Of a stretch of 64,000 bases of DNA, positions 23,871 to 49,903 are shown one piece after another (position 1 is the first letter of the stretch; each line of letters opens with the position of its first letter). Both the position numbers and the translations under genes were made by a program. Location: assembly GCA_021773235.1 (NCBI GenBank), contig JAJFKL010000043.1, forward strand, positions 14,072-78,071. The letters are read 5' to 3'. The stretch comes from Gammaproteobacteria bacterium (GTDB taxonomy: Bacteria > Pseudomonadota > Gammaproteobacteria > Eutrophobiales > Eutrophobiaceae). Below the pieces are notes generated by a model. That model saw only the letters and a program-made list of their open reading frames with translations, had not been told where the DNA came from and made no database searches.

Positions 23871-23887
23871 GACTTAATGTAGGGCGT

Positions 23888-25977: not shown

Positions 25978-26086
25978 AGCGATGTTAAATTAGGGCACAT
26001 AGTGACAATCATTAAAAATTATTAATGTTTGTCGCTACTCTCTTTCCCCTCATTCTTATCAGTGTTTGTCATGCAACGCGCTGATA

Positions 26087-27439: not shown

Positions 27440-29119
27440 GTGAATTCAGTTTCTGACATCATTCCGTCGGCAGGCATTACTGACGCTGATAATCAACCGA
27501 AGCAAATTGATTGGCATGCCGGTTCAAATGGACAGTTATTTGAAGTAGAAGCCTTGCCGGAAAGACTCTGCTCGCTTGATGTGCCATTTTCACTGGTATC
27601 AGATCAATCTCAAATCAAATTAGGGCTCGGTGGCTCAATCCATCTCGATGATAAAGTTGAGGATGAAAACGCTTATCAACATTTGGCCTTTGTACCGAAG
27701 CAAACGATCCAGGCATTGGGCAATAAACAGTTTTGTCATGATTATGCGATTAAGTATCCGTACATGACGGGTGCCATGGCAAATGGTATCGCCTCTGTCG
27801 AATTAGTCGAGGCCATAGCCAAGGCGGATATGCTGGCATCATTTGGTGCTGCAGGTTTATCGTTGGCAGAAGTTGAAAAAGCAATTCAGCGTATACAAGC
27901 CTCTATCCCAAACAAACCATTTTGTTTTAACCTTATCTATAGTCCGAATGAAAAGGGTCATGAAGATGCCGTAGTCGATCTCTATCTACGCTATGGTGTT
28001 GATCTGGTAGAAACCTCAGCTTACATGAAACTCACTTTACCGGTGGTACGTTATCGTGTGAAAGGTATTCATAAAGATGCACAAGGTAATATCGTTGTTC
28101 CAAATCGAATTATTGCCAAGGCATCACGTGTTGAACTGGCGAGTAAATGGTTTAGTCCTCCACCAGAAAAATTACTCAATGAGTTAGTAGCTCAGGGCGC
28201 AATTACTGAAGCAGAAGCTGGGCTAGCCAAAGATATTCCGATGGCACAGGATCTGACTGTCGAAGCTGACTCAGGCGGACACACAGATAATCGTCCAGCA
28301 ATAACACTACTACCAACGATGTTGGCCTTACGTGATCAAATACAAGCGGAATATAATTATGCACATGAACTGCGTGTTGGTGCAGCAGGCGGTATTGCAA
28401 CACCTGCTTCTGCCCTAGGCGCCTTTGCGATGGGTGCGGCGTATATTGTTACAGGCACGGTAAATCAAGCCTGCAAAGAATCAGGTTCATCGGATATTGT
28501 CAGAGAGATGTTAGCCAATACAGGACAAGCCGATGTGACGATGGCGCCGGCAGTTGATATGTTTGAAATGGGTGTGAAGTTACAAGTTTTAAAACGCGGT
28601 TCTATGTTTGCCATGCGTGGGAATAAACTTTATGAGCTATACAAAAAATACGCATCGATTGATGAAATACCAGAAAAGGACAAAGCCAATATAGAAAAAA
28701 CAATTTTTAAAATGTCCTTAGAGGATGTTTGGCAAAAGACCTATGATTTTTTTAGTGAACGCGATCCTTCACAAGTAGAAAAAGCAAAGAATGACCCGAA
28801 ACATAAAATGGCATTAATTTTTCGCTGGTACCTTGGCTTATCATCGCGTTGGGCAAATGCCGGCGTAGCAGATCGTCAAGTGGATTATCAAGTCTGGTGT
28901 GGCCCTGCCATGGGTGCCTTCAATGAATGGACACGTGATACGTTTTTGGCAACAACGGAGAAACGTGATGCAGTAACGGTTGCAATGAATATTATGTTTG
29001 GTGCGGCATTCTTAAGTCGTGCGAATGGAATTTTAAAACAAGGTGTTGAGCTTGCTGGTGTATTAACCCAGTTCCAACCGATGCAACTTGATGCAATAGA
29101 AAAATATTTAACTGAGTAA
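27440..29119 (+). CDS. pfaD: PfaD-family trans-acting enoyl reductase (FMN/TIM-barrel, 2-nitropropane dioxygenase-like)
   Basis: 559 aa. Highly conserved PfaD block KYPYMTGAMANGIASVELV. Confidence 0.9.
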   Translation: MNSVSDIIPSAGITDADNQPKQIDWHAGSNGQLFEVEALPERLCSLDVPFSLVSDQSQIKLGLGGSIHLDDKVEDENAYQHLAFVPKQTIQALGNKQFCHDYAIKYPYMTGAMANGIASVELVEAIAKADMLASFGAAGLSLAEVEKAIQRIQASIPNKPFCFNLIYSPNEKGHEDAVVDLYLRYGVDLVETSAYMKLTLPVVRYRVKGIHKDAQGNIVVPNRIIAKASRVELASKWFSPPPEKLLNELVAQGAITEAEAGLAKDIPMAQDLTVEADSGGHTDNRPAITLLPTMLALRDQIQAEYNYAHELRVGAAGGIATPASALGAFAMGAAYIVTGTVNQACKESGSSDIVREMLANTGQADVTMAPAVDMFEMGVKLQVLKRGSMFAMRGNKLYELYKKYASIDEIPEKDKANIEKTIFKMSLEDVWQKTYDFFSERDPSQVEKAKNDPKHKMALIFRWYLGLSSRWANAGVADRQVDYQVWCGPAMGAFNEWTRDTFLATTEKRDAVTVAMNIMFGAAFLSRANGILKQGVELAGVLTQFQPMQLDAIEKYLTE

Positions 29120-29124: not shown

Positions 29125-32100
29125 ATGTCTAAAAAAGAAAATAATCAGATGAAACCTCTTGCCATCGTAGGCATAGGTTGTCTCTTCCCTAAAGCAAATA
29201 ACGCCGAAGAATATTGGGCCAATATTCGAGAAGGCGTTGATGCGATTACAGATATTCCAGAATCACATTGGAAGCCTTCGGATTATTTTGACGAAGACAA
29301 ATCAGCACCAGACATGACCTACGGTAAACGCGGTGGTTTTATCAATGCGATGGATTTCAATCCACTGTTATACGGAATGAGTCCAAACAATATAGAAGCG
29401 ACAGACACGACTCAGTTACTCGGAATGATGGTCGCACGACAAGCTCTATTGGATGCGGGTTACTCAACAGGTAAGGATGCAGGCGATGGTCGTGAGTTCG
29501 ATCGTGATCGTACCAGTGTTATTCTCGGTATCACCGGTACTTTAGAATTAGTCATCCCATTAGGCGCAAGGCTCGGACACCCTATCTGGCGCAAAGCACT
29601 TGCCGATGCCGGCGTAGATCCTGAAACTACCGAAGATGTTGTCCAACGTATCGCTGATGGTTATGTGCCTTGGCAAGAAAATTCATTCCCGGGTTTATTA
29701 GGTAATGTTGCTGCAGGAAGAATAGCGAATCGTTTTGATCTTGGTGGTACTAACTGCGTGGTCGATGCAGCTTGTGCGAGTTCATTAAGTGCGGTTCATC
29801 TCGCAGCATTAGAACTCAGTGCTGGTCGTGTAGACATGGCCATAACCGGTGGTATGGATACATTCAACGATATCTTTATGTATATGTGTTTTAGTAAAAC
29901 ACCTGCATTATCACCAACGGGAAACAGTCGACCGTTTGCAAAAGAAGGAGACGGTACGATTCTTGGTGAAGGCTTGGGTGCCGTTATATTGAAACGATTA
30001 GAAGACGCTGAACGAGATGGCGATAAAGTCTATGCTGTTTTAAAAGGCATGGGTTCCTCTTCCGATGGCAAGGGTAATGCGATCTACGCACCCAGTGCAG
30101 AAGGACAAACCAAGGCGCTATGGAACGCGTATCGCGAAGCAGATGTTACGCCAAGAAGTATAGAGTTAGTTGAAGCACATGGTACCGGGACATCTGTCGG
30201 TGATGCAGTTGAAGCCAAGGCCTTGTCCGGTGTTTACAGTCAGGATAATGAAGATGAAACCTGGTGTGCCGTTGGTTCAGTAAAGTCGATGATAGGGCAT
30301 ACCAAGGCAGCAGCAGGTGTCGCCGGACTTATAAAAACGGCAATGGCATTAAAATATAAAGTCTTACCGCCAAGCATAAAGGTTGATGAGCCTTTAGAGA
30401 TTATTAATCCCGGAACGGCACCCATTTATCTTAACTCAGTAAAGCGCCCTTGGTTAAAAACACAAGCGACACCACGGCGTGCAGCGTTGAGTGCATTTGG
30501 TTTTGGTGGTAGTAATTTCCATTGCGTGTTGGAAGAAGCAGAAGAAACAAAGACAGAGATAGAATGGGACGGGCAAGTATTAATTATTGCACTCAGTGCC
30601 GATTCGAAAGCAGAATTAATAAATAGATTACCGGATGCTGCCATATTAGCTTCGCCAGAGCAGCTTCGATTCTTTGCCTATGATTCATGTCAATCATTTA
30701 AGGTTGATGCAGCTCATCGTTTAACCATTGTTGTTGATAAGACAAATACAGATGTCACAAAACACATTGCAGATGTTAAACAACAACTAAATGAATCATC
30801 TGAAACAACATGGCAAAGACCAAACGGAGTGATGTATAGCTCCGGTGAAACAGATAATAAAATTGCCTTTGTTTTTCCTGGACAGGGATCTCAATACGTA
30901 GGGATGTGTCGTGATCTGGCTTGTCAGTTTCCGCAATTCTCAGGGGCACTTGAAGAAGCAAACCATCTCTTTATTGAAGCGACAGGTAAACAAAGTCTAG
31001 CAGATGTCTTATATCCTATTCCTGTCTTTTCCAAGACGGATGAAAAAGAACAGGAAAGTACATTACGCCAAACACAGAATGCACAACCTGCAATTGGTGC
31101 GGTGAGTGTTGGTGTGTTAAATATATTAAATCATTTTTCTGTTGAACCAACGGCAGCGATTGGCCATAGCTATGGTGAACTTACCGCTCTTTCTGCAGCG
31201 GGAGTATACAATACAGAAACCTTACATCGTTTATCACGAATCCGTGGTGAACTCATGGCCGCAGGCGAGGGTGATCGAGGATCAATGTTGGCGGTGGTTG
31301 CGTCATATGAACAAGTCGAATCATTGCTCAAAGAAAATAATATAGAGCTGATTATTGCCAACCATAATTCGCCGAGTCAGGTTGTCCTTTCTGGCGCGAC
31401 AGATCAAGTTGAACGTTTTGCCAAGATCGCAAAAGTTGAAAAAATTCGTGCGATTAAACTACCCGTTGCAGCTGCCTTTCATAGCCCCTTTGTTGCTGAT
31501 GCAGCTAAACCCTTCGGGGAGGCGTTAGTGCCATTTAAATTTTCAACAAATAAATATCAGGTGCTTTCAAACACAACAACAGAAGCCTATCCAAAAGAAG
31601 CTGATGCAGCAAAGCAGCTACTAGCAAACCAGTTAGCAGCGCCGGTTCGGTTTGTTGAGCAAGTAGAAAGATTGTATGCGGAAGGGTTTAATACCTTTGT
31701 TGAAGTAGGACCAGGCAAAACATTGACGGGGCTCGTTGGTGCAATCCTGGCAGATAAAGATTTTACTGCTATTGCTGTAGACGCATCTGCAGGCAAGAAA
31801 CAAGGACAATATGACTTGGCTATGGCATTGGCCAGTCTCGCGACAAAGGGAGTTAATGTTGATCTAACAAAATGGGATGCACGATGTTCGGAGTTAGAAA
31901 GACCCGCAAAAGACGCCAAGCCAGCAATGACAGTATCGATCAGTGGTGCCAATGTAATGTTACCGCGAGAATCCAGATCACCAAGCAAACCCCGGCCACC
32001 CAGTAAACCAAAGAAGACCATTATCAATATGACGGATGAAGTAAAACAAATTCCACAAACGACTACTCCTGTTGTACCACAACAAAATAATGGCTTATTA

Positions 32101-35100
32101 CAAGCAACTCAGGAAAGTATTCTTGCCTTGCAAAAAATGCAGGAACAAACAGCGCGGTTACATCAGCAATATCTTGAAGGACAGGAAACAGCACAAAAAT
32201 CTATTCAGTCATTATTAGAACAACAACAACGATTGATGTCTGGGCAACCATTAGCTGCAGTACCTCAACAAGCAGCGCAACAGCCCACACAACAACAAAT
32301 AAAATTAAATGTCCCTGCTCAAGAAATAAGTGTTTCACCAGCACAGGTTGAAAAACCAATTGTTAAAGAAAGCGAAGAATCAAAACAAACAAGTTCTATA
32401 ACTACTGAACAATCAGATGTTGATATTAATAACCTGTTATTAAACGTGGTCTCAGAAAAAACCGGTTACCCACTAGAAATGCTAAGTCTCGATATGAGTC
32501 TGGATACAGATCTTGGTATTGATTCGATCAAACGCGTGGAAATTTTATCGGCACTGCAAGAAAAGTTACCCTGGTCGGCAGCAGTAAACCCGGAAGAATT
32601 AGGGACCTTTCAGTTCTTGCAACACATCGTTGAGTTTATTGTTGCTGGAAGACCTGCTCATGAAGCATCAACACAGATAGCGGTAGTAGTAGAGGCAAAA
32701 CAAGTTGTCGCAACCGATAGTAATTTTGAAAAAACACTATTGAATATAGTCGCAGAAAAAACGGGCTACCCGATCGAGATGTTGGATCTGGAAATGAATC
32801 TCGATAGCGATTTGGGGATTGACTCGATTAAGCGCGTAGAGATCTTGTCGGCATTGCAAGAAGCCATGCCAGAATTACCAGTGGTTAGTCCAGATGAATT
32901 GGGGCAGTTACAAACACTACGGTCAATAACAGAATTATTTGATTCAGAACAAACTGTAGCAACATCAGAACCATCTATACAGACTGCATCGTCAGCAACA
33001 ACTCAAAACAGTGGCTTTGCAGAAACATTATTAGAAGTTGTTGCAGATAAAACGGGTTATCCAACTGACATGTTAAGTCTAGATATGAATCTAGATAGTG
33101 ATTTGGGTATTGATTCAATTAAGCGAGTAGAAATACTCTCGGCCATACAAGAACGACTTCCTGAATTGCCTGCTGTAAGCCCAGATGAAATGGCCGCTTT
33201 GCAAACACTGCAATCTATCGTTGATGTATTTAATGTGGCTGACGTTGTTACATCGAGCGCACCGCAAAAAGCTGATTCAGACCTATCAGTAATTTTACTT
33301 GAGGTTGTTGCAGATAAAACAGGTTACCCCGCCGAGATGTTAAATCTGGAAATGAATCTGGATAGTGATTTAGGCATAGATTCTATCAAACGAGTTGAAA
33401 TCTTATCAGCATTGCAAGATAAAATGCCAAATCTCCCGGTAGTTGCCGCAGATGACCTTGCCGCCTTACAAACCCTGCAACAAATCATAGACTATATGAA
33501 TGAGCAAACGGGCGAGAAGGCCCCAGAAACGTATCAGGGACAACAGGTAGAAATAAGCAAGAGCAATGATGCCAAAGAATCAAGACTGGTTCGCAGTGTT
33601 GTACATACTACTCCTATCGAACATGCGGAGAAAAGAAAGACGATTGCATTTGATCAGGCTAAAGAGATTTGGTTAAGCAAAAACGGTGGTGCGTTAGCTA
33701 AGCAATTAGCAGAAGAATTAAAAAGCCATGGTTATAAGACACGACTCGTTGGCAAGAATGTAAAACCCAATGACAAGCAGGGTGCTTTAATTCTCTTTGC
33801 TGATAATAAGTCAGGTAAACAAGACCTGCTGGATGCTTTTACATTAATGCAAATATGCAGCGCATCGCTTAAAAAATCTAAAGGACTTCTGATTTCGATT
33901 ACTACACTGGGTGGTCGTTTTGGTTTCGATGGCAATATAAGCGGTAATGCTGAACAAGCAGGACTTTACGGGCTTATAAAAACAGCAGATAAGGAATGGG
34001 ATGACGTTAGTTGTAAATCAATTGATGCTGATTCAAGTACATTATCTATCCCCTTACTCTATGAAGAGGTCTTTCTTGAGGGTCCATTGGAAACAGCTCT
34101 GGTAGATGATGAGATTATCGAATTAACCTTACATGAAGAAGCATTTGGTGGACTTGAAACTGAACATACCCTGCTAAGTGAAAAAGATTTAATCGTCATA
34201 TCAGGTGGGGCACGTGGTGTAACAGCGGAGGTGGCAGTAAAAATTGCAGAGTCCTACCAATGTAATCTTTTATTGTTGGGTCGTAGTCCTGAACCGGAAG
34301 ACGAAGCAGAATGGTTGATGACATTAACTGATCCAGCAGCGATAAAAAAAGCAATTCTCGATAATTCAGATGAAAAGCTTAAACCGGCTGAATTGGAAAA
34401 GCGTTATCAATCGGTACTAGCCAATCGTGAGATAAGAAAGTCTTTACAACGCATTCAACAAACTGGCGCGAATGTTCAATACGCGTCAGTCGATGTTACT
34501 GATAATGACGCTGTTGCCAATGTAATTGATATGGCACGTATTGAGTTAGGTAATGTGACCGGCATAATCCATGCAGCCGGCGTTTTGGCAGATCGAATAA
34601 TTGAAGACAAGACGACTGAACAATTTAATTCGGTTTATTCTACTAAGGTCGATGGATTGCAAAGCTTACTCTCCGCAACACGAGATGATGAATTGAAACT
34701 AATGGTGTTGTTTTCATCGACCACGGCACGTCTGGGACGTAAGGGGCAGGTTGATTATGCCGCAGCGAATGAAGTACTGAATAAAATCGCGCAAACAGAA
34801 AATCAACAACGCAAAAACTGTAAGGTGCTGTCGGTTAACTGGGGTCCATGGGACGGTGGCATGGTAACACCTGCCTTGAAAAAACTATTCGCAGAAGAGG
34901 GCGTTGGTGTCATTGGTCTAAATGCTGGTGCAGATTATTTAATACAAGAGATAGAATCAACTGGTCCAGTTGAAACAGTTGTCCTCGGTGAAGCAGATAA
35001 TGTCCTTAAGAAAATACCATTAAATAATTCATTAGCCATAGAAGAACGTGGTGATTTAGCAATCGCCTTTGAGCGAGATCTATCTGTTAGTTCGTATGAC

Positions 35101-35907
35101 TTTCTAAATTCACATGTGATGAATGGTCAAGCGGTTCTACCTGTTGCGGTAATTGTTGAGTGGTTCGCTCATGGCGCATTGCATTTAAATCCGGGGATGC
35201 AATTTCATGGGTTTGATGATTTCCGTGTTTTAAAAGGAATTACCTTAAAGGCGAATGAAAATATTCATTTAAGAATTCTGGCAGGGACTATGGTACAGCA
35301 AGGCAATCTATCGCTGGTGCCTGTTGAGTTACGTTCGGATGAATTGTTACATGCTAGTGCCGTCATGGTATTGGTAGATGCTTATGAAAAAAATGCGTTA
35401 CCAAAATTGAAAGCAGTAAAAGGCACTTATCAATATCAACAAGGCGAGTATTATAAAAATGGACAACTATTCCATGGGCAACATCTACATGGCATACGAG
35501 AAGTAACACACTGTAGTGAAAAAGGTATTGTTGCCAATGTGAATTCTGCACCACCACCAACGGCATGGATGAAGCAACCAATTCGGTCCAGTTGGCTAAC
35601 CGATCCGCTAATATTGGATTCAGCATTTCAGATGATGATCTTATGGAGCTTTGAACAACAAGGGATTGGTTCATTACCGACTGCAATAGCACATTATCGT
35701 CAATTTCAACGCAGCTATCCAAAAGATGGTGCGAAGGTAATTGCTGATGTGATTGAGCAAACGAACCATCGTGCTAATGCATCAATCGAATTTCTTAATA
35801 GCAAAGGTACTTTAATTGCATTAATGGAAGGATACGAATGCGTGCGTGATAGTTCATTACAAACTGCATTTGGCGATAATGAACTGCTTGGCAAAGAAAA
35901 CGTATAG
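29125..35907 (+). CDS. pfaA: PfaA-like multidomain PUFA/PKS-type synthase (KS-AT-ACPx4-KR-DH)
   Basis: 2260 aa. KS active-site region DAACASSL and HGTGT. AT motif GHSYGE. Four tandem ACPs (DLGIDSIKRVEILSALQE x4, about 32440-33480). KR Rossmann ISGGARGVTAEV. PKS-type DH HxxxGxxxxP (HVMNGQAVLP). Confidence 0.9.
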   Translation: MSKKENNQMKPLAIVGIGCLFPKANNAEEYWANIREGVDAITDIPESHWKPSDYFDEDKSAPDMTYGKRGGFINAMDFNPLLYGMSPNNIEATDTTQLLGMMVARQALLDAGYSTGKDAGDGREFDRDRTSVILGITGTLELVIPLGARLGHPIWRKALADAGVDPETTEDVVQRIADGYVPWQENSFPGLLGNVAAGRIANRFDLGGTNCVVDAACASSLSAVHLAALELSAGRVDMAITGGMDTFNDIFMYMCFSKTPALSPTGNSRPFAKEGDGTILGEGLGAVILKRLEDAERDGDKVYAVLKGMGSSSDGKGNAIYAPSAEGQTKALWNAYREADVTPRSIELVEAHGTGTSVGDAVEAKALSGVYSQDNEDETWCAVGSVKSMIGHTKAAAGVAGLIKTAMALKYKVLPPSIKVDEPLEIINPGTAPIYLNSVKRPWLKTQATPRRAALSAFGFGGSNFHCVLEEAEETKTEIEWDGQVLIIALSADSKAELINRLPDAAILASPEQLRFFAYDSCQSFKVDAAHRLTIVVDKTNTDVTKHIADVKQQLNESSETTWQRPNGVMYSSGETDNKIAFVFPGQGSQYVGMCRDLACQFPQFSGALEEANHLFIEATGKQSLADVLYPIPVFSKTDEKEQESTLRQTQNAQPAIGAVSVGVLNILNHFSVEPTAAIGHSYGELTALSAAGVYNTETLHRLSRIRGELMAAGEGDRGSMLAVVASYEQVESLLKENNIELIIANHNSPSQVVLSGATDQVERFAKIAKVEKIRAIKLPVAAAFHSPFVADAAKPFGEALVPFKFSTNKYQVLSNTTTEAYPKEADAAKQLLANQLAAPVRFVEQVERLYAEGFNTFVEVGPGKTLTGLVGAILADKDFTAIAVDASAGKKQGQYDLAMALASLATKGVNVDLTKWDARCSELERPAKDAKPAMTVSISGANVMLPRESRSPSKPRPPSKPKKTIINMTDEVKQIPQTTTPVVPQQNNGLLQATQESILALQKMQEQTARLHQQYLEGQETAQKSIQSLLEQQQRLMSGQPLAAVPQQAAQQPTQQQIKLNVPAQEISVSPAQVEKPIVKESEESKQTSSITTEQSDVDINNLLLNVVSEKTGYPLEMLSLDMSLDTDLGIDSIKRVEILSALQEKLPWSAAVNPEELGTFQFLQHIVEFIVAGRPAHEASTQIAVVVEAKQVVATDSNFEKTLLNIVAEKTGYPIEMLDLEMNLDSDLGIDSIKRVEILSALQEAMPELPVVSPDELGQLQTLRSITELFDSEQTVATSEPSIQTASSATTQNSGFAETLLEVVADKTGYPTDMLSLDMNLDSDLGIDSIKRVEILSAIQERLPELPAVSPDEMAALQTLQSIVDVFNVADVVTSSAPQKADSDLSVILLEVVADKTGYPAEMLNLEMNLDSDLGIDSIKRVEILSALQDKMPNLPVVAADDLAALQTLQQIIDYMNEQTGEKAPETYQGQQVEISKSNDAKESRLVRSVVHTTPIEHAEKRKTIAFDQAKEIWLSKNGGALAKQLAEELKSHGYKTRLVGKNVKPNDKQGALILFADNKSGKQDLLDAFTLMQICSASLKKSKGLLISITTLGGRFGFDGNISGNAEQAGLYGLIKTADKEWDDVSCKSIDADSSTLSIPLLYEEVFLEGPLETALVDDEIIELTLHEEAFGGLETEHTLLSEKDLIVISGGARGVTAEVAVKIAESYQCNLLLLGRSPEPEDEAEWLMTLTDPAAIKKAILDNSDEKLKPAELEKRYQSVLANREIRKSLQRIQQTGANVQYASVDVTDNDAVANVIDMARIELGNVTGIIHAAGVLADRIIEDKTTEQFNSVYSTKVDGLQSLLSATRDDELKLMVLFSSTTARLGRKGQVDYAAANEVLNKIAQTENQQRKNCKVLSVNWGPWDGGMVTPALKKLFAEEGVGVIGLNAGADYLIQEIESTGPVETVVLGEADNVLKKIPLNNSLAIEERGDLAIAFERDLSVSSYDFLNSHVMNGQAVLPVAVIVEWFAHGALHLNPGMQFHGFDDFRVLKGITLKANENIHLRILAGTMVQQGNLSLVPVELRSDELLHASAVMVLVDAYEKNALPKLKAVKGTYQYQQGEYYKNGQLFHGQHLHGIREVTHCSEKGIVANVNSAPPPTAWMKQPIRSSWLTDPLILDSAFQMMILWSFEQQGIGSLPTAIAHYRQFQRSYPKDGAKVIADVIEQTNHRANASIEFLNSKGTLIALMEGYECVRDSSLQTAFGDNELLGKENV

Positions 35908-36019
35908 TTACAACATTCGTCTATTTCTTATTAAAAAAAGCTTTGTTTTAAAATCGGTAGGGGAGCTTGAAAGCTATTTCGCACTGCTTAGACTCATAAA
36001 CCGAGAATAGAATTTAATA

Positions 36020-37432
36020 ATGGTAAAACAAAATAAAGGATTAATTCGACCTTATAGCAGTTTAATGGCTGCGATATTTAGAGGTGCGGATATATTAATT
36101 GTTGGCGGTAGTCTTTGGGCGTTAACATGGTTCTTAAATATTCCTTGGAGTGATTTTTATACCATAGCGACATTCGCAGCTATGATCTTATTTATTTTGG
36201 TATCTGAAATTTCTGGCTTATATGGTTCATGGCGTTTTTCCTATTTGCAACAAGAGATATCACAAGTCTTTGTGACCTGGTTCTGGGTTGTCTTCGGATT
36301 GTTGATTTTGGCTTATGCAACCAAGACATCATCTATCTATTCAAGAAGAATACTACTGACGTGGATCTTTCTTACACCAATATTTTTGTCTTTTCTAAGG
36401 GTTTTCATACGAAAAATATTACATGAGATCCGAAACAGGGGAAGGAATACCCGGTCTGTTGCAATTATCGGCGCGGGTGACCAGGCGACTCAGGTAGCAA
36501 AAGAATTAGAACGGTTATCCTGGCTCGGCATAAATATAGTGGGTTACTTTGACGATGATTTCTCTGGTGGATACCGCCCTATTACCGGGGATAAAATAGA
36601 AGTCATTGGTAACACAATGGATGTTGTAAATCGTGCCAAAAATAATGAATTCGATATTATCTTTATCGCATTACCGATGTCGTATGAATCAACAATTAGT
36701 AGTCTTGTTGGGGAACTTTCAGATACCACAGCGATTACTTATATCGTTCCTGATTTATTTATTTCTGGTCTATTGCAGACCCGTTGGGGTTATATGGGAA
36801 ATATTCCATTTTTGAGCATTCATGACAGACCGTTTAATGATATTGATGGATGGGTAAAACGCGCTGAGGATATTATTCTCGCCAGCCTCATATTTGTATG
36901 TATATCCGTTCCTATGTTGATCATTGCGATGTTAATAAAACTCACTTCGACAGGTCCCGTAATCTTTAAACAAAAACGATATGGTCTTTCGGGCGATGAG
37001 ATACGCGTTTGGAAGTTTCGAACGATGCATGTTAAAGAAGACGGCGATCATATAAAACAAGCGGAAAAAAACGATGCACGTCTAACAAAACTCGGGAAGT
37101 TCTTAAGAAGAACATCACTCGATGAACTTCCACAATTCATTAATGTAATTCAAGGAAAGATGTCGATAGTCGGTCCAAGGCCGCATGCCGTTGCGCATAA
37201 CGAGCAATATAGAAAGGAAATCTTTGGCTATACATTACGTCACACGATCAAACCCGGTATCACCGGTTGGGCGCAGGTCAATGGCTGGCGTGGTGAGACC
37301 GACACCTTAGACAAAATGGAAAATCGAGTCGATCATGACCTTTGGTACATCAATAACTGGAGCCTGTTACTCGATTTCAAGATAATCTTCCTGACCATAA
37401 CCCGTGGTTTTGTTGGAGAAAATGCGTATTAA
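36020..37432 (+). CDS. polyprenyl-phosphate hexose-1-phosphate transferase (WbaP/WcaJ-like initiating sugar transferase)
   Basis: 470 aa. N-terminal TM helices, CoA-binding-like Rossmann segment (IIGAGDQATQVAKEL), C-terminal bacterial sugar transferase domain (DELPQFINVIQGKMSIVGPRP). Confidence 0.85.
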   Translation: MVKQNKGLIRPYSSLMAAIFRGADILIVGGSLWALTWFLNIPWSDFYTIATFAAMILFILVSEISGLYGSWRFSYLQQEISQVFVTWFWVVFGLLILAYATKTSSIYSRRILLTWIFLTPIFLSFLRVFIRKILHEIRNRGRNTRSVAIIGAGDQATQVAKELERLSWLGINIVGYFDDDFSGGYRPITGDKIEVIGNTMDVVNRAKNNEFDIIFIALPMSYESTISSLVGELSDTTAITYIVPDLFISGLLQTRWGYMGNIPFLSIHDRPFNDIDGWVKRAEDIILASLIFVCISVPMLIIAMLIKLTSTGPVIFKQKRYGLSGDEIRVWKFRTMHVKEDGDHIKQAEKNDARLTKLGKFLRRTSLDELPQFINVIQGKMSIVGPRPHAVAHNEQYRKEIFGYTLRHTIKPGITGWAQVNGWRGETDTLDKMENRVDHDLWYINNWSLLLDFKIIFLTITRGFVGENAY

Positions 37433-37560
37433 TTAATTAGTTGATGTTGCCTAATAGATGACATACATTTTTATCTCTGGACGGTAATGTATATGACTAT
37501 TCCCAATTGAACAGAAGCCCTCTTAATTATATAGCTTAATTGCTTAAGATATACTTCAAT

Positions 37561-37890
37561 GAAAAAGGCATTGTTGTTAATGTAAACTCAGCACCACCAT
37601 CGTCGGCTTGGATGAAATAACGTATGCTCTCTTATTAGACTCTTTCAGGTGATGATCTTGTGGAACGGTTGAGCAACTGGGGATTGGTTCATTACTCACT
37701 GTAATAGCGCCTTATTGCCAATAATATTGTAGCTAGCCGAAGGATGGTACAAAGGTTCTCTGATGTAATCGAACATTAAGACAATCGTGCTAATTCAACT
37801 ATTGAGTTGATAGATGATAAAGGGCAGTTAATCGCATTGATGAAGGGTGATGAATGTGTGCGTGATAGTTTGTTTCAGACTGCAGTTAAA
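37561..37890 (+). pseudogene. degenerate duplicate of the 3' end (DH-domain tail) of the PfaA-like gene
   Basis: About 70-75% nucleotide identity to 35518..35880. Translates to EKGIVVNVNSAPPSSAWMK*...HCNSALLPIIL*...IALMKGDECVRDSLFQTA versus the original EKGIVANVNSAPPPTAWMKQ...IALMEGYECVRDSSLQTA. Contains stops and indels. Confidence 0.7.
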
Positions 37891-37999
37891 GAATATAAAT
37901 TCAGTAATAGAAAATATTCTAATAGCTCTCACAATCTCTGTGTAAGGTAATGTTATAAAAAAGTTTAGAAATCAGTTTATTAATATGGAATATCAAAAG

Positions 38000-40141
38000 C
38001 TATATATGCGGTAAGTGCTCAAGTTTACGTCGGAATTCATCCGTTATTTTTTTTGCATCTACGTTATTACGCACAACACGAGGAGTTAATAGGACAACTA
38101 GCTCCGTTCGTCTTTTTTCGACACTTGTATTACCAAATAATTTTCCTATAAATGGAATTTTATACAAACCGGGGATGCCACCTTCATTTTCCGACTCAGA
38201 ATTACGTATTAAGCCACCTAAAACAATGGTTTGTCCTGTATTGATCGCGACAGTACTTTCTATTTGTCGTTGCTGAATGGTGGGGGCATCAATATTTGAT
38301 GATGTTGTCGCTACGGCATTACTGACCTCTTGGCGAATATCCATAGTAACAAGACCACTATTATTCACGCGAGGGGTAACTTCAAGTGTGACACCCGTAT
38401 TTCTGAATTGGATTTCATTAACCGTTGGCGCATTTGGATCCACATTACTGCTTGATTGCCGAGTAGGCACAGGTATTTCATCACCAACATTAATTGTTGC
38501 TGTCTGATTATCTAAAACCATTAATGACGGAGCGGAAAGGACATTAACTTCTGATTCAGTTTCTAATGCATTTAAAGCAACTTTAATATTTGATGCACTA
38601 TTAACAATGGAATAAGAAAATCCCGGTGCCAATGCCGACAAGCCTGCTGTGCCTGAATCGAGTTGCCCCTGACCAGTTCGACTTCGACCAACTTGATTGT
38701 TGAAGAACCATTCGACGCCATAACTTAAATCACCATTTAACGTGACTTCCAAAATGCTTGCTTCAATAAGTACTTGTAGCGGGATTACATCCAGCTTTCT
38801 AATTGCGGCTGCAACCATTTTATAATCACGCGAAGAGGCGAGTATGACTAATGCATTACGTGTGTCGTCTGCAATGATCTCTACGGAGCTATTAGAGTTA
38901 ATAGAAAGTCCTGAGTCACCAACGCTGACCGGTGCTATAGGTGTCGATGTTGTATTTTCGTTAGCATTTGCATTTTCGTCTGTGGTTATTTCAACAGGTG
39001 TCGTTCCTGGCGCCAATTGAGGTGCTGTCGATGACGATGTTGACGTGTCACCATCAAAGATATTACCCAAGATTTCGGCAATTTCTATTGCTTTGGCATT
39101 TTGTACATTATAAACATAGAGGTTTTGGCCTACTTGTTCGCCTTGTCTATCCAGCCGGTAGAGCCAAATTTCTGCTTCACGAAGGGCGGCTTGTGTTGAA
39201 CTGATTAATAATATTGAATTTAATCGTTCTAGTGCAACACTGCGTACCAAACCATCTAATAATTCATTAGAAGATGAGCCTTCAACGCCGCCTAATATTT
39301 CATCCAGTTCTGTTTTTAATGTTTCTGGATCCACATAATCAAGTGGATAGAGTCCGACAGACATGCCACGTAACCAATCGACATCAAAGATGTTAATGGT
39401 TTCCTGAAGCTGTTGTAGTTCATCAGGTGTACCGCCAATAATTAGCATATTTCTTTGCTTATCTACTCTGAGCTCACCACCGTCGGTTATGAAAGGCTCA
39501 AGTATTTTTTGCATTTCCTGAGCGGCAATAAATTCTAAGGGAACAATTCTGACACTGTACCCACTTTGAACTGATACTTCAGGAGTGGTAGGCGAGAGAT
39601 TTCCTTTTACAACTTTGGATTTTGGTAAGACTTTATAAATACCATTCGATTCTATTATTGCAGCATTGTTAATCGATAAGAGCTCTTCCAGTAGCGGGAA
39701 TAATTGTTCTTTCTTTAAAGGGTTTGCTGTTTCTATTGTGACTGAACCGCTTACTTGAGGGTCGATAACAAAATTTACATTAAGGACATCACTTAGAATA
39801 ACTTTGACGAACTCATTAATATCAGTACCTTGAAAATTAAGTGTAATGTCGCCTGCATCAGTTTGTGTAGTCGTTATGTCTTTAGGTGTCGATTCTCCAA
39901 CATATTTACCATCGCCAATTTCAATTATTTGTTGGCGTTTATCATTAACAGGATCCGAATTTCCGATTAATACTTCATCTTGAACAATAGGTTCAAATTT
40001 TTCTGATTGGGTAGTGCTGGCGGGTACTGGATCTTCCTTAACAATAGTTGGCGCTATCGTATATCCGAACATATTGCAGCCCGTTACTAGAACTAGGGTA
40101 GCACTAGATATGACAATTAAATTTAACAGCTTCTTCTTCAT
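38000..40141 (-). CDS. gspD: type II secretion system secretin GspD (XpsD-like), lipoprotein-type signal
   Basis: 713 aa. Lipobox LVTGC. N-domain repeats. C-terminal secretin motif GGIPGLYKIPFIGKLFG. Last gene of the gsp operon. Confidence 0.85.
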   Translation of the reverse strand: MKKKLLNLIVISSATLVLVTGCNMFGYTIAPTIVKEDPVPASTTQSEKFEPIVQDEVLIGNSDPVNDKRQQIIEIGDGKYVGESTPKDITTTQTDAGDITLNFQGTDINEFVKVILSDVLNVNFVIDPQVSGSVTIETANPLKKEQLFPLLEELLSINNAAIIESNGIYKVLPKSKVVKGNLSPTTPEVSVQSGYSVRIVPLEFIAAQEMQKILEPFITDGGELRVDKQRNMLIIGGTPDELQQLQETINIFDVDWLRGMSVGLYPLDYVDPETLKTELDEILGGVEGSSSNELLDGLVRSVALERLNSILLISSTQAALREAEIWLYRLDRQGEQVGQNLYVYNVQNAKAIEIAEILGNIFDGDTSTSSSTAPQLAPGTTPVEITTDENANANENTTSTPIAPVSVGDSGLSINSNSSVEIIADDTRNALVILASSRDYKMVAAAIRKLDVIPLQVLIEASILEVTLNGDLSYGVEWFFNNQVGRSRTGQGQLDSGTAGLSALAPGFSYSIVNSASNIKVALNALETESEVNVLSAPSLMVLDNQTATINVGDEIPVPTRQSSSNVDPNAPTVNEIQFRNTGVTLEVTPRVNNSGLVTMDIRQEVSNAVATTSSNIDAPTIQQRQIESTVAINTGQTIVLGGLIRNSESENEGGIPGLYKIPFIGKLFGNTSVEKRRTELVVLLTPRVVRNNVDAKKITDEFRRKLEHLPHI

Positions 40142-40245
40142 GAAGATGAAACTCCTTTAAGATTACCGTTTTATATTATTATTATTACTTTATTCTATGC
40201 TTTCTCAGCTGAATATAAAGCATTATTAGCAATGTATTACCAAAT

Positions 40246-40887
40246 TTATGTGCCAGGCGGTGTTGATGTTTTGATGGGGATTGGGGGTGTTTTTTTAGTT
40301 TGTTGGTTTATTCCTTCTTTAGGACTCGTTTTGTTATTTTTCGTAGCCGGCTGTTTTTGAGGTTTGCTAGTTTTTATTTCGAGTTCAAGGTTTTTAGTTT
40401 CATTCCCTTTTTTTAGCAATACTGCTCGTGGTTCGATGGTTTCTAATATCCAGCCTTCTATTTCTTCACCGAGAGCAAGACGTTGTAATGTCTTGCTCCG
40501 ATCGGACTGAATGATGGCGAGTTGTCTTCCTGGCGTGATGATTACTGCATTTAATGAATATTGTTCAGTTTTTTTCGGAGTCGCTTTTTTCTTTTGCTTT
40601 GACGGTTTGGTCTGCTTTACAGGTGCAACATAAACGTAAGGTTTTCTATCTGCGAAAAACAAAGGTCGATTGATGACTTCATCGAATTCTGAAATATCGG
40701 GCGCTACATACTGGATTGCTTCAGCTGGTGCTGCGTTGGTAATAGTAGGTTTTTTTTCAACATAAATACTGTTCGGTATCGCTACAGTGTTATTTAAATC
40801 TGCCCAGAGTAGGTAACCTAATATACAACACGTAAATAACAGTGTTATTTTTAAAAAAGTTAATCTAGATTGAGCTGGTTTATTCAT
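40246..40887 (-). CDS. T2SS inner-membrane component GspC/XpsN-like
   Basis: 213 aa. One N-terminal TM. HR-like segment (AVIITPGRQLAIIQSDRSKTLQRLALGEEIEGWILETIEPRAVLL). Lys/Pro-rich linkers. Positioned as xpsN, immediately before gspD. Confidence 0.5.
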   Translation of the reverse strand: MNKPAQSRLTFLKITLLFTCCILGYLLWADLNNTVAIPNSIYVEKKPTITNAAPAEAIQYVAPDISEFDEVINRPLFFADRKPYVYVAPVKQTKPSKQKKKATPKKTEQYSLNAVIITPGRQLAIIQSDRSKTLQRLALGEEIEGWILETIEPRAVLLKKGNETKNLELEIKTSKPQKQPATKNNKTSPKEGINQQTKKTPPIPIKTSTPPGT

Positions 40888-41462
40888 GCGGCAACTCGAT
40901 TCAAATACCCGGTAACATCAAAACGCACCTCTAGTAGTCCTGTATTTTTATTTTGTCTTTTTGATGAAACGTGTCGACGTTGTATCAATAGGTTGTCTGT
41001 AAACAAAAGTGGTTTATTATTTGTTAGTTTGTATAACACTGCTTGCAGTGCTTTCATGTCAACTTGCATGTGTACTTTTATGGTGACTTTAGGATAAACA
41101 TCATCATCTTTACCTGTAATAGCATGCGTGCTAACCAGATTTCCGCCGCTGGCTTCAACGATAGTTTTTAGCTTTTTTTGTAGTTCAGCTGCAATAATGG
41201 CGGGCACATCGCCTGTTAGAAAGTCCGCTTTATTCGCATTATTGTTGTTAAGTGTTTTAATTTCGTTTTCCAATACTTTTATGTTTCCAGCAGCCCCTGA
41301 AAACTTGCTCAATTGAAATGTAAGATCCTCGATGCGGTCAACATTCGCTTTTCTAGTTGTAAGGGCAGGTTGTATGAGAACAAAATAAAATACAGCGACA
41401 GTGATTAATGAAATTCCTGCGGAAAATAGACCGTGTTGCCAATGGGAGAGTTTTGTTTTCAT
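40884..41462 (-). CDS. gspM: T2SS protein GspM-like
   Basis: 192 aa bitopic protein between gspL and gspC/N. Assignment by position and topology. Confidence 0.55.
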   Translation of the reverse strand: MKTKLSHWQHGLFSAGISLITVAVFYFVLIQPALTTRKANVDRIEDLTFQLSKFSGAAGNIKVLENEIKTLNNNNANKADFLTGDVPAIIAAELQKKLKTIVEASGGNLVSTHAITGKDDDVYPKVTIKVHMQVDMKALQAVLYKLTNNKPLLFTDNLLIQRRHVSSKRQNKNTGLLEVRFDVTGYLNRVAA

Positions 41463-42535
41463 ATTCTCTCCTGTTTGAATTTAGCTGATAAATGAAATTT
41501 ATCTTTGCCAGTTGATCTATTTTGTGTGACAGGTGATCTGAATTGTACTTTGGTAAAGTATGCAGAAGAATCCAGTGTTTGAATAAGTGATGAAGCGTTA
41601 CTTGATTCACCCTGTAATTGCAAATCACCGGTTTTCATAACAAAACGTGTTAACCAGGTATCGTCGGGAATAATTTGTGTCACCTCATCGATGAGTTTGA
41701 GGCTACTTATTTCATTTGCGCGTTTATTTTTCAGAAATTGCATTTGCCCCAATATCTTTTCTTTGTCTTGTCGGAGTTCTTGTAAACGCATAGCCGTTTT
41801 TCTTTGTTTGACTATTTCCGATTCAAGCAGACTTAGATTCTTTTGTTGGTTAATTATTGGAGCAAATAACAGGGCGACTAAAAGTAAGCATGTTGTTGTC
41901 ACCAAAATAAGTAAGGCATTGTCAGATTTGACATTTTCCTGAGGTCTTTTTTCAGCCGAGAGCAGGTTAAGACGTGGGTTGTCATATTGGCTTACAGGTT
42001 TAATTGAGTCTAGTTCAATATCCCACGTGTTCAGTTCGCCGAGTATACTGTCAATTCGATCACGTGGTACTAAAAACAATTCAAGATGAACTTTATCTGA
42101 ATCTACATTATTTTCATTTAAAAGATAATCATAATAGGTTTGTTCTGGTGTGAATGGAGTTTTTCGATTCATTTCAAACGAAAGCACTTCTCTTAAATTT
42201 GAACTTGCTGCTTTGGGGAAGGCCATTTTTTTTGTTAAAAAGAGTTCGTCAGGAATTATCAGTGAGACATAACAATTGTGTTGTAAGTTTTCCTGTAACC
42301 AACTCAAAACAACAGCACGTTCTATATCATCAGTTTTAACAAACTGTCGTATCTCACTGGCTTCTTTTAAACTATTTGAGTATCGCTTAAATAAAACCTG
42401 CTGCTCTTTGAATTCTATCGTGATCAATGCAGGAACAGGGTTAAATACCTTGCTTATTGAAGCAGGGCAGAGGTAGCCTAGACCTTCTGTCCACCATGCA
42501 ATCGCATCATTAAACTTTAAAATACCAAACATCAA
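41459..42535 (-). CDS. gspL: T2SS protein GspL-like
   Basis: 358 aa. Cytoplasmic domain, one TM, periplasmic domain. Position between gspK and gspM. Confidence 0.6.
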   Translation of the reverse strand: MMFGILKFNDAIAWWTEGLGYLCPASISKVFNPVPALITIEFKEQQVLFKRYSNSLKEASEIRQFVKTDDIERAVVLSWLQENLQHNCYVSLIIPDELFLTKKMAFPKAASSNLREVLSFEMNRKTPFTPEQTYYDYLLNENNVDSDKVHLELFLVPRDRIDSILGELNTWDIELDSIKPVSQYDNPRLNLLSAEKRPQENVKSDNALLILVTTTCLLLVALLFAPIINQQKNLSLLESEIVKQRKTAMRLQELRQDKEKILGQMQFLKNKRANEISSLKLIDEVTQIIPDDTWLTRFVMKTGDLQLQGESSNASSLIQTLDSSAYFTKVQFRSPVTQNRSTGKDKFHLSAKFKQERI

Positions 42536-43486
42536 TTAGCTCTCTGTTTCTTCAAATTCTGATTCACTTTCTTTTTTACTACTTTCTGAGGATTCTTGCC
42601 ATGATAAAATGGAATAAGGTCTATTTATATATTGCTTCATTAACACAATAACTTCGAGTTTTGCATGTGTATCGTGAATGATTCCTTCACTGGAAATTGA
42701 AAAAATCTGGCCGATGGATTTAGACAAGTGCTTCGAGTCTATACCAATCAAGGGAGGAGGAGTCTGTGTGTCGGTAATATTCAACCTTGATTCTATAAAA
42801 TCATCCACTTGTTCCACACTGATGCCAGGTATCGCTAGTAATGCTTCTCTTGGAGCAGAATTTGGATTTATGCCGGCTTGATGTGAATGTATAGTTAGCG
42901 CAGGCTTCAATCTATTATAGATAGTAGTGGTCATGCCTAAAACCAATTGCAATTCATCCAATGAATTAAATGAACCGTCTTTTGCACCATACTCATAGTC
43001 GAGACGTTGATAATCATCATCTTCAGCACCATTAGTGCGTACTAAATTATCCTTGTCACGCCAGTCGAGAATTGCCTGTAGCAGTTGCAAATGATCTTCT
43101 TCGGTTGATTCAGAAGCATCGCTTGATTGAATTAAACCATACAAGAGATCGGAGCGGGCTGTATTTAAATCTATTTTTCCCGATTCATCAATTATTTTTA
43201 AGTTGATATTGCCTTGTTTAAATTCATGTGAATAATTAGTTCCGTCAGTTTTCCAGATCTGCTCTACCCTCGGTTTTAATAGCTCAGATACGGCCTGCCA
43301 TACACCCGCTTCTGCAATGGCTTTTGCTTGGTTTGAATGAACAAGGTTTGCAGTTAACCCGGTTTCTATTCTAACCATACGGCTATAACCAGTAGCTAAT
43401 ATAATGAGTAACGACAGCATCCACAGCACAATCACAAGAGCGATACCTGATTGACGACTTTTAGATTGAATTACTTTTTGTGTCAT
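42536..43486 (-). CDS. gspK: T2SS minor pseudopilin GspK
   Basis: 316 aa. N-terminal SGIALVIVLWMLSLLIILA hydrophobic segment typical of GspK. Confidence 0.75.
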   Translation of the reverse strand: MTQKVIQSKSRQSGIALVIVLWMLSLLIILATGYSRMVRIETGLTANLVHSNQAKAIAEAGVWQAVSELLKPRVEQIWKTDGTNYSHEFKQGNINLKIIDESGKIDLNTARSDLLYGLIQSSDASESTEEDHLQLLQAILDWRDKDNLVRTNGAEDDDYQRLDYEYGAKDGSFNSLDELQLVLGMTTTIYNRLKPALTIHSHQAGINPNSAPREALLAIPGISVEQVDDFIESRLNITDTQTPPPLIGIDSKHLSKSIGQIFSISSEGIIHDTHAKLEVIVLMKQYINRPYSILSWQESSESSKKESESEFEETES

Positions 43487-43490
43487 CTGA

Positions 43491-44168
43491 TTAAATTGGA
43501 GATTGAGAGGTTTTACTCAGAACAAATTGCGCTTGTCCTCTGACAAAATGTGAGTGCAACGGGATCTTTAGTTCAGGCCAGTCTTGATTTTCATCTGTGC
43601 CGAGAATTTTTATACTGATAAGAAGAGGTAAAAATTGATCGTTCTGCCATTCATCTTGCCATTGCGGTGATTGATCTGCTTTTTCACGACCAAAGTAGGC
43701 GATTTCAATATCTTTTATATCTTCCAATAGCGTTACTTGCTCAAAATTTTCATTATCAAATGGATAAACATCTCCTCCAGCATGACGGTAATAGAAATCA
43801 AGATGATTCATGTCATCAGTGTTATTTATTTTCAGCGAGACCAGTTGTACGCCACCACCACCACGATGAGCAGGCAAAGTTGTTGTAAAACTTATTTCAT
43901 TATTTTTACCAGAAAACAGGAGTTTTTGCTTTTTATTGTCAGACCATAACAATGGCGTCATTTGAGTGAGCTGTCGTTGAATAAACTGAGCCACAATTCT
44001 GGTCTCATCATTGAGTGCTATTTTACGTTCAGTTGACTGCCAACTTTTGTTTGCAGTGAAAATAGTGCTAAAGAGTAAGACTAATATTAAACTGAGCAAG
44101 GTCATTGCGATGATTACTTCAATCAAGGTAAAGCCACTAGCGATTTTTATTTTAATATTATTCTTCAT
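43491..44168 (-). CDS. gspJ: T2SS minor pseudopilin GspJ
   Basis: 225 aa. Prepilin-type N-terminus GFTLIEVIIAMTLL. Confidence 0.75.
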   Translation of the reverse strand: MKNNIKIKIASGFTLIEVIIAMTLLSLILVLLFSTIFTANKSWQSTERKIALNDETRIVAQFIQRQLTQMTPLLWSDNKKQKLLFSGKNNEISFTTTLPAHRGGGGVQLVSLKINNTDDMNHLDFYYRHAGGDVYPFDNENFEQVTLLEDIKDIEIAYFGREKADQSPQWQDEWQNDQFLPLLISIKILGTDENQDWPELKIPLHSHFVRGQAQFVLSKTSQSPI

Positions 44169-44593
44169 GAGACTGGAATCATTTTTAAAGTGCTCAATTT
44201 AATGGAGCGAGTTTTTCCAAGGCTGTCCCAGCTTACTTCAACTTCGACCTCACGTTTGACAATACGAAATCTAGTTTCAAGTGTTCCATAATCATCGTCT
44301 GGTATCTGAATATTAGTGTTCCAGTGGTATTTGTTATTTTCAACGCCTGAAAGCACGCCATTATCAGATAGTTCGTCTATTCCGATGCTAGCCAATTTAG
44401 ATTGAGCCACAATTACTGCGCGCGAATATTCATCACTTAATACCGTTGAACGTGCGCCAGTACTATAGATTTGAAAAATAACACCAAGGCTTAAGGCAAA
44501 TATAGAGAAAGCAACCAACACCTCTAGTAATGAAAACCCTTTATGCTTCTTAATCATGTTTTGGGAAGGATCTTGATTTTCCCGGTTAACCAA
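44165..44593 (-). CDS. gspI: T2SS minor pseudopilin GspI
   Basis: 142 aa. Prepilin-type N-terminus KGFSLLEVLVAFSIFAL. Confidence 0.75.
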   Translation of the reverse strand: MVNRENQDPSQNMIKKHKGFSLLEVLVAFSIFALSLGVIFQIYSTGARSTVLSDEYSRAVIVAQSKLASIGIDELSDNGVLSGVENNKYHWNTNIQIPDDDYGTLETRFRIVKREVEVEVSWDSLGKTRSIKLSTLKMIPVS

Positions 44594-45009: not shown

Positions 45010-45033
45010 AAGGTATTACACATCGCCGGATGT

Positions 45034-45456: not shown

Positions 45457-45504
45457 AAAATTAATATTAACCATGTGACAATTTATATTTAAGTTAAGGA
45501 TGCT

Positions 45505-49841: not shown

Positions 49842-49903
49842 ACAATTCACTTCAATTTATTACGATTAAATTCATCAAACCCCGGTTTAATGGGAGGACA
49901 ATT

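Follow-up and report, generated by a model that had tools for sequence, protein, structure and literature searches.

What is the short stretch of DNA that lies between the end of a sugar transferase gene and a secretin gene, how is it related to the lipid synthase gene further upstream, and how did it come to lie there? The question is raised by a 64,000-nt stretch of contig JAJFKL010000043.1 (assembly GCA_021773235.1), hereafter the window, whose positions are used for all coordinates. In the window, a pfaA-like gene encoding a polyketide synthase (PKS) of the polyunsaturated fatty acid (PUFA) type is followed by a gene for an initiating sugar transferase (ST) and, in the opposite direction, by gspD of a type II secretion system (T2SS). 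The analysis confirmed that positions 37553-37925, here called the relic, are a real direct copy of the pfaA 3' end that has since decayed, and on balance we take it to be the dead former end of pfaA, displaced when a one-sided recombination brought in the present tail together with ST. The features on which the argument rests are:

29125..35907, plus strand: pfaA-like PKS/PUFA-type synthase gene, intact and full length, 2260 amino acids (aa), with the order KS-AT-4xACP-KR-DH according to Pfam.
35510..35907, plus strand: functional pfaA 3' tail, from the end of PS-DH through the stop codon, which is the duplicated segment (blocks D1-D4).
35908..36019, plus strand: spacer between pfaA and ST, alignable at both edges with that of the metagenomic contig L162 and otherwise unmatched.
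36020..37432, plus strand: ST, of the undecaprenyl-phosphate hexose-1-phosphate transferase type, intact, 470 aa (Pfam CoA_binding_3 and Bac_transf).
37433..37552, no strand: AT-rich filler of 120 nt that separates the ST stop from the relic, with no similarity to any locus.
37553..37925, plus strand: relic, a pseudogene fragment of pfaA 35510..35907, recognized by blastn, indels and stops, codon-position pattern and tail tree.
37926..37970, no strand: interval containing the right-hand breakpoint, homology to L173 and L174 ending at 37971.
38000..40141, minus strand: gspD, secretin gene (Pfam), the last gene of the convergent T2SS operon (gspE to gspD, 38000-48613).

A blastn search of 37433-37999 against the window gave a single non-self match, 37560-37887 against 35517-35871, with 68.5% identity over 356 columns, 29 of them gap columns, and an E-value of 6.5e-36. 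Repeat finding resolved four collinear blocks on the same strand, and identity inside the ungapped blocks was 70-91%:

D1: 35510-35578 and 37553-37621, 78% identity, offset 2043.
D2: 35626-35647 and 37643-37664, 91% identity, offset 2017.
D3: 35651-35738 and 37669-37756, 76% identity, offset 2018.
D4: 35744-35871 and 37760-37887, 70% identity, offset 2016.

Relic and pfaA tail are direct repeats, both on the plus strand and about 2 kb apart. Relatives were obtained by searching species-representative genomes with the DH tail as query, which yielded 22 close loci (L001-L022), all of them from marine Gammaproteobacteria or 'Thiotrichaceae' metagenome-assembled genomes; distant homologous loci were found in Geobacter/Geomonas and in planctomycetes. 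The relic is collinear with orthologous tails from 20 genomes and, because the alignment with these tails extends the homology through the equivalent of the stop codon (TAG at 37923-37925), the whole of 37553-37925 corresponds to pfaA 35510-35907. A first-pass annotation, made from the letters of the window, had described a decayed copy of the last 360 nt or so of pfaA at 37561-37890, with stops, indels and 70-75% identity. The decayed copy is there at that location, with five to six stops and four indels at the E-value given above; its extent is slightly longer than described, and the identity estimate was slightly high for the match as a whole. The same annotation had named, as an example of what would point to chance or low complexity, a pairwise identity below 60% without a conserved reading frame; the alignment gave 68.5%, with z=20 for one block.

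The 5' edge of the relic (37552/37553) is abrupt. The 125 nt at 37428-37552 showed no similarity to pfaA 35380-35515 of the window and of eight relatives (z<1 versus shuffles), and the first true repeat block gave z=20 in the same alignment test. An extension of the relic back to the ST stop, hinted at by D10 and the 8-mer ACTATTCC at a similar offset, was rejected, since its semi-global score was about that of shuffles (z<1). The filler at 37433-37552 resembles neither pfaA, nor the spacer between ST and rmlA of L161, nor any other locus. Furthermore, the 8,449 nt of L169, a Logan assembly of run SRR15505519, are 100.000% identical to window 36588-45036; because this identity runs across the junction, the succession of gspD, relic and ST is not an artefact of one assembly.

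When the register of pfaA is followed, the relic shows 56% protein identity and the internal stops already mentioned, with indels of -26, +1, -2 and +2 nt relative to pfaA. It has neither a start codon nor the upstream portion of pfaA, and the longest open reading frame (ORF) in the whole spacer between ST and gspD has 56 codons. This spacer shows no Rfam family at E<=1 and no terminator-like site, and its promoter-like sites are fewer than expected from shuffles. Among nine functional tails of the close clade, mean differences are 13, 7 and 49 at codon positions 1, 2 and 3, respectively, an excess at third positions that indicates purifying selection. The private changes of the relic at sites invariant in these nine tails amount to 24, 15 and 18% at codon positions 1, 2 and 3, and this even spread indicates neutral decay. 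Third-position identity between species-level lineages of the close clade is 53-67% pairwise, and third-position divergence is about 17-20% per lineage; because the private change of the relic, about 18%, is close to this value, the relic is old, roughly of the age of the close-clade radiation. With homology to a functional gene, a broken frame and no third-position bias, the relic has the properties of a pseudogene or gene remnant, and it is without function of its own.

Where the relic stands among pfaA tails bears on its origin. Its identity is 67-71% to the tails of the close clade (window, L162, L001-L005, L007 and L009) and 53-64% to more distant tails, and the alignment assigns it to the long form ending in KENV*, the normal pfaA C-terminus that the window has in common with L002, L004, L005 and L162. 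In a tree of tails generated by the neighbor-joining method, the relic is placed at the base of the close clade and not with the tail of the window, with bootstrap values of 10% or less. At sites where the window differs, the relic sides with L004 at 28 versus 18, with L003 at 30 versus 24 and with L009 at 33 versus 23. Because of this basal position and the lean of the site pattern towards other genomes, the relic is not a recent self-duplicate. The present tail and L162 have the derived FLNSKG, and the relic has the common state IDDKGQ.

L162 shows the same arrangement of pfaA, spacer and ST as the window, with a tail of 83% nucleotide identity. The ST of the window is 91% identical in amino acids to P0001/L162 and 89% to P0002/L161, and 87% identical to L162 in nucleotides; no identical ST protein is on record. 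A metagenome scan with ST retrieved only transferases of 43% identity or less and one partial sequence of 63%, and a search with the protein of the pfaA tail retrieved only short fragments of 83% or less, of which the best contig, L175, is a noisy 4x long-read sequence that ends 120 nt past pfaA. Homologs of ST lie directly 3' of pfaA in L021 and L162, after gmd-fcl in L163 and L164 and, in L003, at the distal end of an island of 7 kb. Although L003 is a close relative, ST identity to it is 63.5%, compared with 71-76% to the distant L021 and L163; the ST alleles are therefore incongruent with the pfaA phylogeny, which points to allele exchange.

L003 itself is a parallel case with the same geometry and polarity, an intact gene upstream and a displaced older 3' end downstream. 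Downstream of its intact ST (18009-19421) lie two pieces of an ST 3' end, one at 19470-19553 and one at 19616-19778; the latter reaches the stop codon. These fragments are 75-81% identical to alleles of the L163/L021 type, and their match to the ST of L003 itself is 69% or less, or absent.

L162 covers 591 nt of pfaA, 193 of them upstream of 35510, and ends at the ST stop. Identity between the window and L162 is 80.8% upstream of 35510, 84.7% downstream of it and 85.4% in the last 137 nt; the values against L001, L004, L007 and L009 are 84-85, 80-81 and 70-76%, respectively. At informative sites, this change of affinity inside pfaA gave Fisher p values of 0.03-0.05 against L001, L004, L007 and L009. 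Maximum chi-squared breakpoints fell at 35433-35490 or at about 35790, with uncorrected permutation p values of 0.006-0.05 in four of the seven comparisons. The figures weakly suggest a mosaic gene that switches from an L001/L004/L007/L009-like to an L162-like sequence between about 35433 and about 35790.

The explanation towards which we lean is thus that the relic is the displaced and dead former 3' end of pfaA, and that one-sided recombination imported the tail and ST. An incoming segment from an L162-like close relative would have carried the pfaA tail, the spacer, ST and about 120 nt beyond it. One of its ends would have been anchored by homology within pfaA and the other joined without homology, by an illegitimate event, at the position equivalent to 35510; alternatively, a circularized fragment could have entered by a single crossover in the tail (Campbell type), with an identical product. 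Either route would leave pfaA intact with the L162-like tail and shift the resident tail about 2 kb downstream where, having no promoter, start codon or remainder of the gene, it would have decayed neutrally, over a time comparable to the divergence of the species-level lineages of the clade. The repeat, its decay, its sharp edge, the co-linearity with L162 and, as described below, the synteny breakpoint and the variable slot are observed; the direction of the event (which tail was the resident one) and the mechanism of recombination are what we infer. The first-pass annotation had proposed a one-sided recombination or replacement. The intact tail and ST between the PKS body and the relic, together with the sharp 5' breakpoint, are the footprint expected of it; that the relic is not a recent self-duplicate and that tail, spacer and ST are closest to L162 agree with it, and the mosaic evidence for it is weak.

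Several observations weigh against this interpretation. The basal position of the relic, with its low bootstrap values, could be due to long-branch attraction. The mosaic signal is marginal, uses only the 193 upstream nt of L162 and is uncorrected for multiple tests, and the breakpoints estimated from it do not coincide exactly with 35510. No gross step in identity occurs at 35517 relative to longer relatives from GTDB, and tail and ST are not compositionally foreign, the base composition being uniform; because both signals are absent, any donor would be a close relative. Furthermore, no second genome was found to carry the relic and thereby to place the event in time on a tree.

The slot that follows pfaA varies among the relatives. 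A pfaBC fusion (KS-CLF-AT-FabA-type DH) lies directly 3' of pfaA in L001, L007, L008, L009, L011, L014, L015, L017, L018 and L019. Inserts of 1.2-3.5 kb separate the two genes in L006, L010, L013 and L016 and one of 9 kb does so in L005, and no pfaBC is found within 10 kb of pfaA in L003, L004, L020, L021 and L022. The insert genes encode GDP-mannose dehydratase, GDP-fucose synthase, RmlACDB, proteins of Wzy/O-antigen-ligase type, epimerases, Fic, HipA, PIN and AAA/DUF4143 proteins. At least five arrangements after the pfaA stop (pfaBC directly, gmd/fcl, rmlACDB, Wzy-type genes, toxin-antitoxin (TA) genes and ST) occur among about ten close genomes. Because the upstream side is invariant and the gene content after the stop is variable, pfaA forms a conserved boundary on the left of a hypervariable island of polysaccharide type. 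What changes hands in this standing, hypervariable glycan island is an allele or a segment, and no novel gene arrives.

No duplicate of the pfaA tail was found in the other relatives' loci, including those with an island after pfaA. Loci such as L001, L007 and L009, with pfaA directly followed by pfaBC, have no ST and no tail duplicate, an observation equally expected under all the models considered. The first-pass annotation had regarded ST and the new DH tail as an acquired cassette and had proposed orthologous loci as the check. The proposed import of tail and ST agrees with it. Among the orthologous loci, ST is absent from L001, L007 and L009, and the relic is 67-71% identical to the close-clade tails and basal to them; ST is not a novel gene, however, since its homologs adjoin or lie near pfaA in L162, L021, L163/L164 and L003. 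That reading also lacked the main context of the relic, namely pfaA as the left flank of a variable locus and a breakpoint of synteny on the T2SS side.

Two further observations concern the islands of these relatives. The genes gmd and fcl lie between pfaA and pfaBC in L010 (11020-14520), L013 (11011-14066, with an epimerase gene) and L016 (11011-14458), and the corresponding interval of L005 (6896-16186) contains rmlA/C/D/B, gmd-type genes, HipA and TPR genes. From these gene contents, sugar-nucleotide genes embedded in a lipid-synthase operon could possibly serve a glycosylated lipid product. In L003, a 6.4-kb island is flanked by a GC-rich direct repeat of about 105-128 nt (11026-11153 and 17580-17684), whose copies differ by a 23-nt hairpin indel and otherwise show about 94% identity. 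The 128-nt repeat was considered as a second scar at the edge of pfaA and rejected: it is a GC-rich hairpin element, and its hairpin core, CCCC-TTGA-GGGG, occurs once in the window, at 5603-5633 on the minus strand. It may be a small element similar to repetitive extragenic palindromic (REP) sequences or miniature inverted-repeat transposable elements (MITEs).

On the right-hand side, synteny breaks precisely where the relic lies. The gap between the ST stop and the gspD stop is 567 nt, and 75 nt separate the end of the relic from the gspD stop. Homology with L173 and L174 runs from gspD to window 37971, 29 nt beyond the gspD stop, which places the breakpoint within 37926-37970. Apart from this 29-nt stretch on the gspD side, 37926-37999 showed no similarity to other loci, including the spacers that follow pfaA in the relatives. 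In the nearest T2SS relatives, L165-L167 (GspD 92-94% identical in amino acids; nucleotide identity 90-92%), gspD is followed by dinB-SRAP-DUF2237 and further genes; none of these genes on the dinB side is present in the window. Other T2SS lineages have at this place MatE, a MobC/relaxase-like pair with a type I restriction-modification system, or a 256-aa gene without known identity. Only in the distant L020 does a pfaA-gmd-fcl group converge on gspD.

The DNA downstream of gspD (37971-38040) is a second rearrangement hot spot, with six different neighbours in the sampled lineages (L165-L167, L170-L174 and L020). GspD C-termini are found in two forms, a short one ending in KLEHLP(H/P)I* in the window, L173 and L174, and a longer one ending in AS* in the others; the short form is thus common to the window and a relative more distant (81% nucleotide identity) than the long-form relatives (90-92%). 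A gspD clipped by the rearrangement was rejected, as L173 and L174 have the same short C-terminus and homology continues 29 nt past the stop.

This flank bears on a rather unlikely alternative, that the relic belongs to the right-hand segment. It would then be the 3' stump of a second pfaA, derived from donor DNA on the T2SS side or from a resident copy truncated by a deletion ending at the position equivalent to 35510, and the present pfaA-ST would be the older, resident arrangement. The relic does abut the synteny breakpoint, and each lineage has its own sequence after gspD, with dinB in L165-L167. L020 proves that pfaA and a T2SS can be neighbours, pfaA-ST adjacency may be old since L162 and L021 have it in common, and the site pattern of the relic is slightly nearer to L004, L003 and L009 than to the window's own tail. 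However, a change of affinity inside the intact pfaA is not predicted by a stump on the right, L173 homology reaches only 29 nt past gspD, and an additional prior event would be needed, or else a whole second pfaA that left no other trace, the window containing no further remnants of pfaA, pfaBC, gmd or fcl.

Somewhat less probable still is an event within the genome, in which the tail, spacer, ST and possibly more were duplicated in tandem by unequal or slipped recombination and the second ST was then deleted. Tail and relic have the same orientation at a distance of about 2 kb, as such an event would leave them, and an old duplication would also look basal, the age of the relic being about that of the clade radiation. 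Yet this account needs two events, and the 120-nt filler has no counterpart upstream of 35510 or downstream of ST. It also leaves the mosaic signal unexplained, together with the FLNSKG that the window and L162 share and the relic lacks, unless the duplication predated the split between the window and L162.

In E. coli, phage e14 integrates at icd and supplies a surrogate 3' end to the gene. A scar of this kind, left by a site-specific integrative element that gave pfaA a surrogate tail and has since been reduced to ST, is very improbable here. The geometry (a new 3' end, cargo and the displaced old 3' end) is that produced by such elements, and in relatives the islands at this position include TA modules and an AAA/DUF4143 ATPase of the sort usual in mobile islands. 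Nevertheless, 35908-37999 contains no integrase, excisionase or tRNA-like target and ST as its sole gene, no other island locus after pfaA has a duplicated tail, and the repeat of the L003 island is a small GC-rich element found elsewhere too, not a pfaA duplication. Chance similarity, low complexity or an assembly chimera, which might be suspected of an AT-rich region in a metagenome-type contig, has a negligible probability given an E-value of 6e-36, z=20 for one block, collinearity with 20 orthologous tails and an identical second assembly, and a chimeric join would have yielded an intact tail rather than stops and indels.

The recombination that we favour would have acted on a gene with a conserved left flank, whose members are as follows. 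The pfaA protein contains, according to Pfam, ketoacyl-synt, Acyl_transf_1, four PP-binding, KR and PS-DH domains, with PS-DH at the C-terminus. At 33508-34600 of pfaA, identity to L003 and L009 drops to 50-70% and that to L001, L004 and L007 holds at 80-90%, all being similar further 3'; this dip reflects either internal pfaA mosaicism among lineages or misalignment of the tandem ACPs. The gene preceding pfaA is:

27440..29119, plus strand: pfaD-like enoyl reductase gene (Pfam NMO and FabD_helical_ins), part of the invariant left flank, 72-92% identical in amino acids and in the same position in L001-L022.

These two are the only pfa genes of the window. No pfaBC gene or remnant (KS-CLF-AT-FabA-DH) was found across its 64 kb, and one may lie elsewhere in the genome; remnants of gmd, fcl and rml are likewise absent from the window. 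Upstream of pfaD-pfaA and divergent from it (18645-29119; about 1-4500 in L001-L022) are hopanoid genes, namely shc, which encodes squalene-hopene cyclase, a squalene/phytoene-synthase-family gene (SQS), a PNP_UDP-family gene, an MMPL transporter gene and an epimerase gene. The order of shc-SQS on the minus strand and then pfaD-pfaA on the plus strand is found in every related locus with enough upstream sequence.

Within the T2SS operon, the gspG ORF (45034-45624, minus strand, 196 aa, starting with TTG) exceeds the 139-143 aa of its relatives by about 55 aa at the N-terminus, and its true start is probably internal to the listed ORF. L167 shows a PDDEXK_3 nuclease-family gene between gspG and gspH (4629-4994). 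Divergent from the operon, 48846-62082 contains two genes without a Pfam match (331 and 525 aa) and a gene for a 3553-aa Rhs-repeat protein with DUF7948, SBBP beta-propeller, 11 Glucodextran_B domains and Ig-like repeats.

Taken alone, the relic is of little importance, being the dead record of one recombination event. It is of more use as a marker: it indicates that, in an uncultured clade of marine gammaproteobacteria, a surface-glycan island subject to rapid exchange has its fixed border at the end of a Pfa-type synthase gene, and that glycan exchange is sometimes one-sided and duplicative, not only a matter of clean double crossovers. An annotation should label it a pseudogene remnant instead of calling a small ORF, and should note the two-gene pfaD-pfaA state of the genome. 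Judging by gene content, the sugar-nucleotide genes between pfaA and pfaBC in the relatives may be the more interesting lead, towards a possible glycolipid product. Because gmd/fcl or rml lie inside the synthase operon in several relatives and ST is a recurrent neighbour, it is conceivable, if quite unlikely, that the pfaA 3' end is the habitual recombination anchor of a modular locus, a lipid synthase with a swappable glycan cassette, and thus part of a polymorphic glycolipid system evolving in the fashion of rhs/cdi. If so, a glycosylated secondary lipid would have its sugar part diversified by one-sided cassette replacement, with the pfaA tail here and the ST tails of L003 as its footprints.

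Among known systems, O-antigen and capsule loci, such as the pneumococcal cps and the enterobacterial O and K loci, retain gene remnants at their borders from recombination in conserved flanks. The window and its relatives resemble them in a conserved flank gene beside hypervariable sugar-nucleotide, Wzy-type and initiating-transferase genes, in incongruent transferase alleles and in border fragments (the relic and the ST fragments of L003); they differ in that the flank gene is a Pfa-type lipid synthase. To our knowledge, glycan genes inside a pfaA-pfaBC operon, as seen in several relatives, are not a described arrangement. The order of pfaD (ER) and pfaA (KS-AT-ACPn-KR) is that of known secondary-lipid clusters, to which the relatives add the KS-CLF-AT-DH pfaBC fusion. 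Shulse & Allen 2011 (PMC3098273) described such clusters as Type I, with the pfaBC fusion, and the two-gene Type J (pfaD and pfaA), and Geobacter/Geomonas and planctomycetes are among the taxa listed for Type I (PMC3098273). The cluster here is similar to both: compared with Type I, the window has no pfaBC within its 64 kb, which makes it like the two-gene Type J, and its pfaA has a C-terminal PS-DH.

Displacement of C-terminal ends is found in rhs, cdiA and type VI secretion system effector loci (Jackson et al. 2009, Poole et al. 2011, Koskiniemi et al. 2014, as cited in PMC5361080). The likeness to rhs/cdi loci, which the first-pass annotation had drawn, is formal only: the window also has an intact gene followed by an older displaced 3' end on the same strand, with the same proposed mechanism. 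However, its two ends are orthologous alleles of one PS-DH domain instead of alternative toxin domains, the breakpoint is in mid-domain without a demarcation motif, no immunity-like gene follows the relic, and the displaced end is dead and of no evident selective value. Diversifying selection would here act on the neighbouring glycan genes and not on the PKS.

For the mechanism, the closest comparison is homology-facilitated illegitimate recombination (HFIR), as defined in PMC3240628. Such events are reported from bacteria capable of natural transformation and from conjugation in E. coli (PMC3240628; de Vries & Wackernagel 2002 and Prudhomme et al. 2002, as cited in PMC5361080), and it has been proposed for displaced effector ends, immunity arrays and rhs 'orphan' 3' regions (PMC5361080, Kirchberger et al. 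2017). Like HFIR products, in which the non-homologous junction usually has microhomology, the window shows a non-homologous cargo (spacer, ST and 120 nt) and a sharp far junction, and the putative anchor would lie in a conserved gene, pfaA; this is not a signature unique to HFIR, since a Campbell-type single crossover of a circular fragment gives the same product. The relic is better classed with the gene remnants that mark the edges of exchangeable glycan loci, here probably left by an HFIR-like event, and as a kind of scar that is already known.

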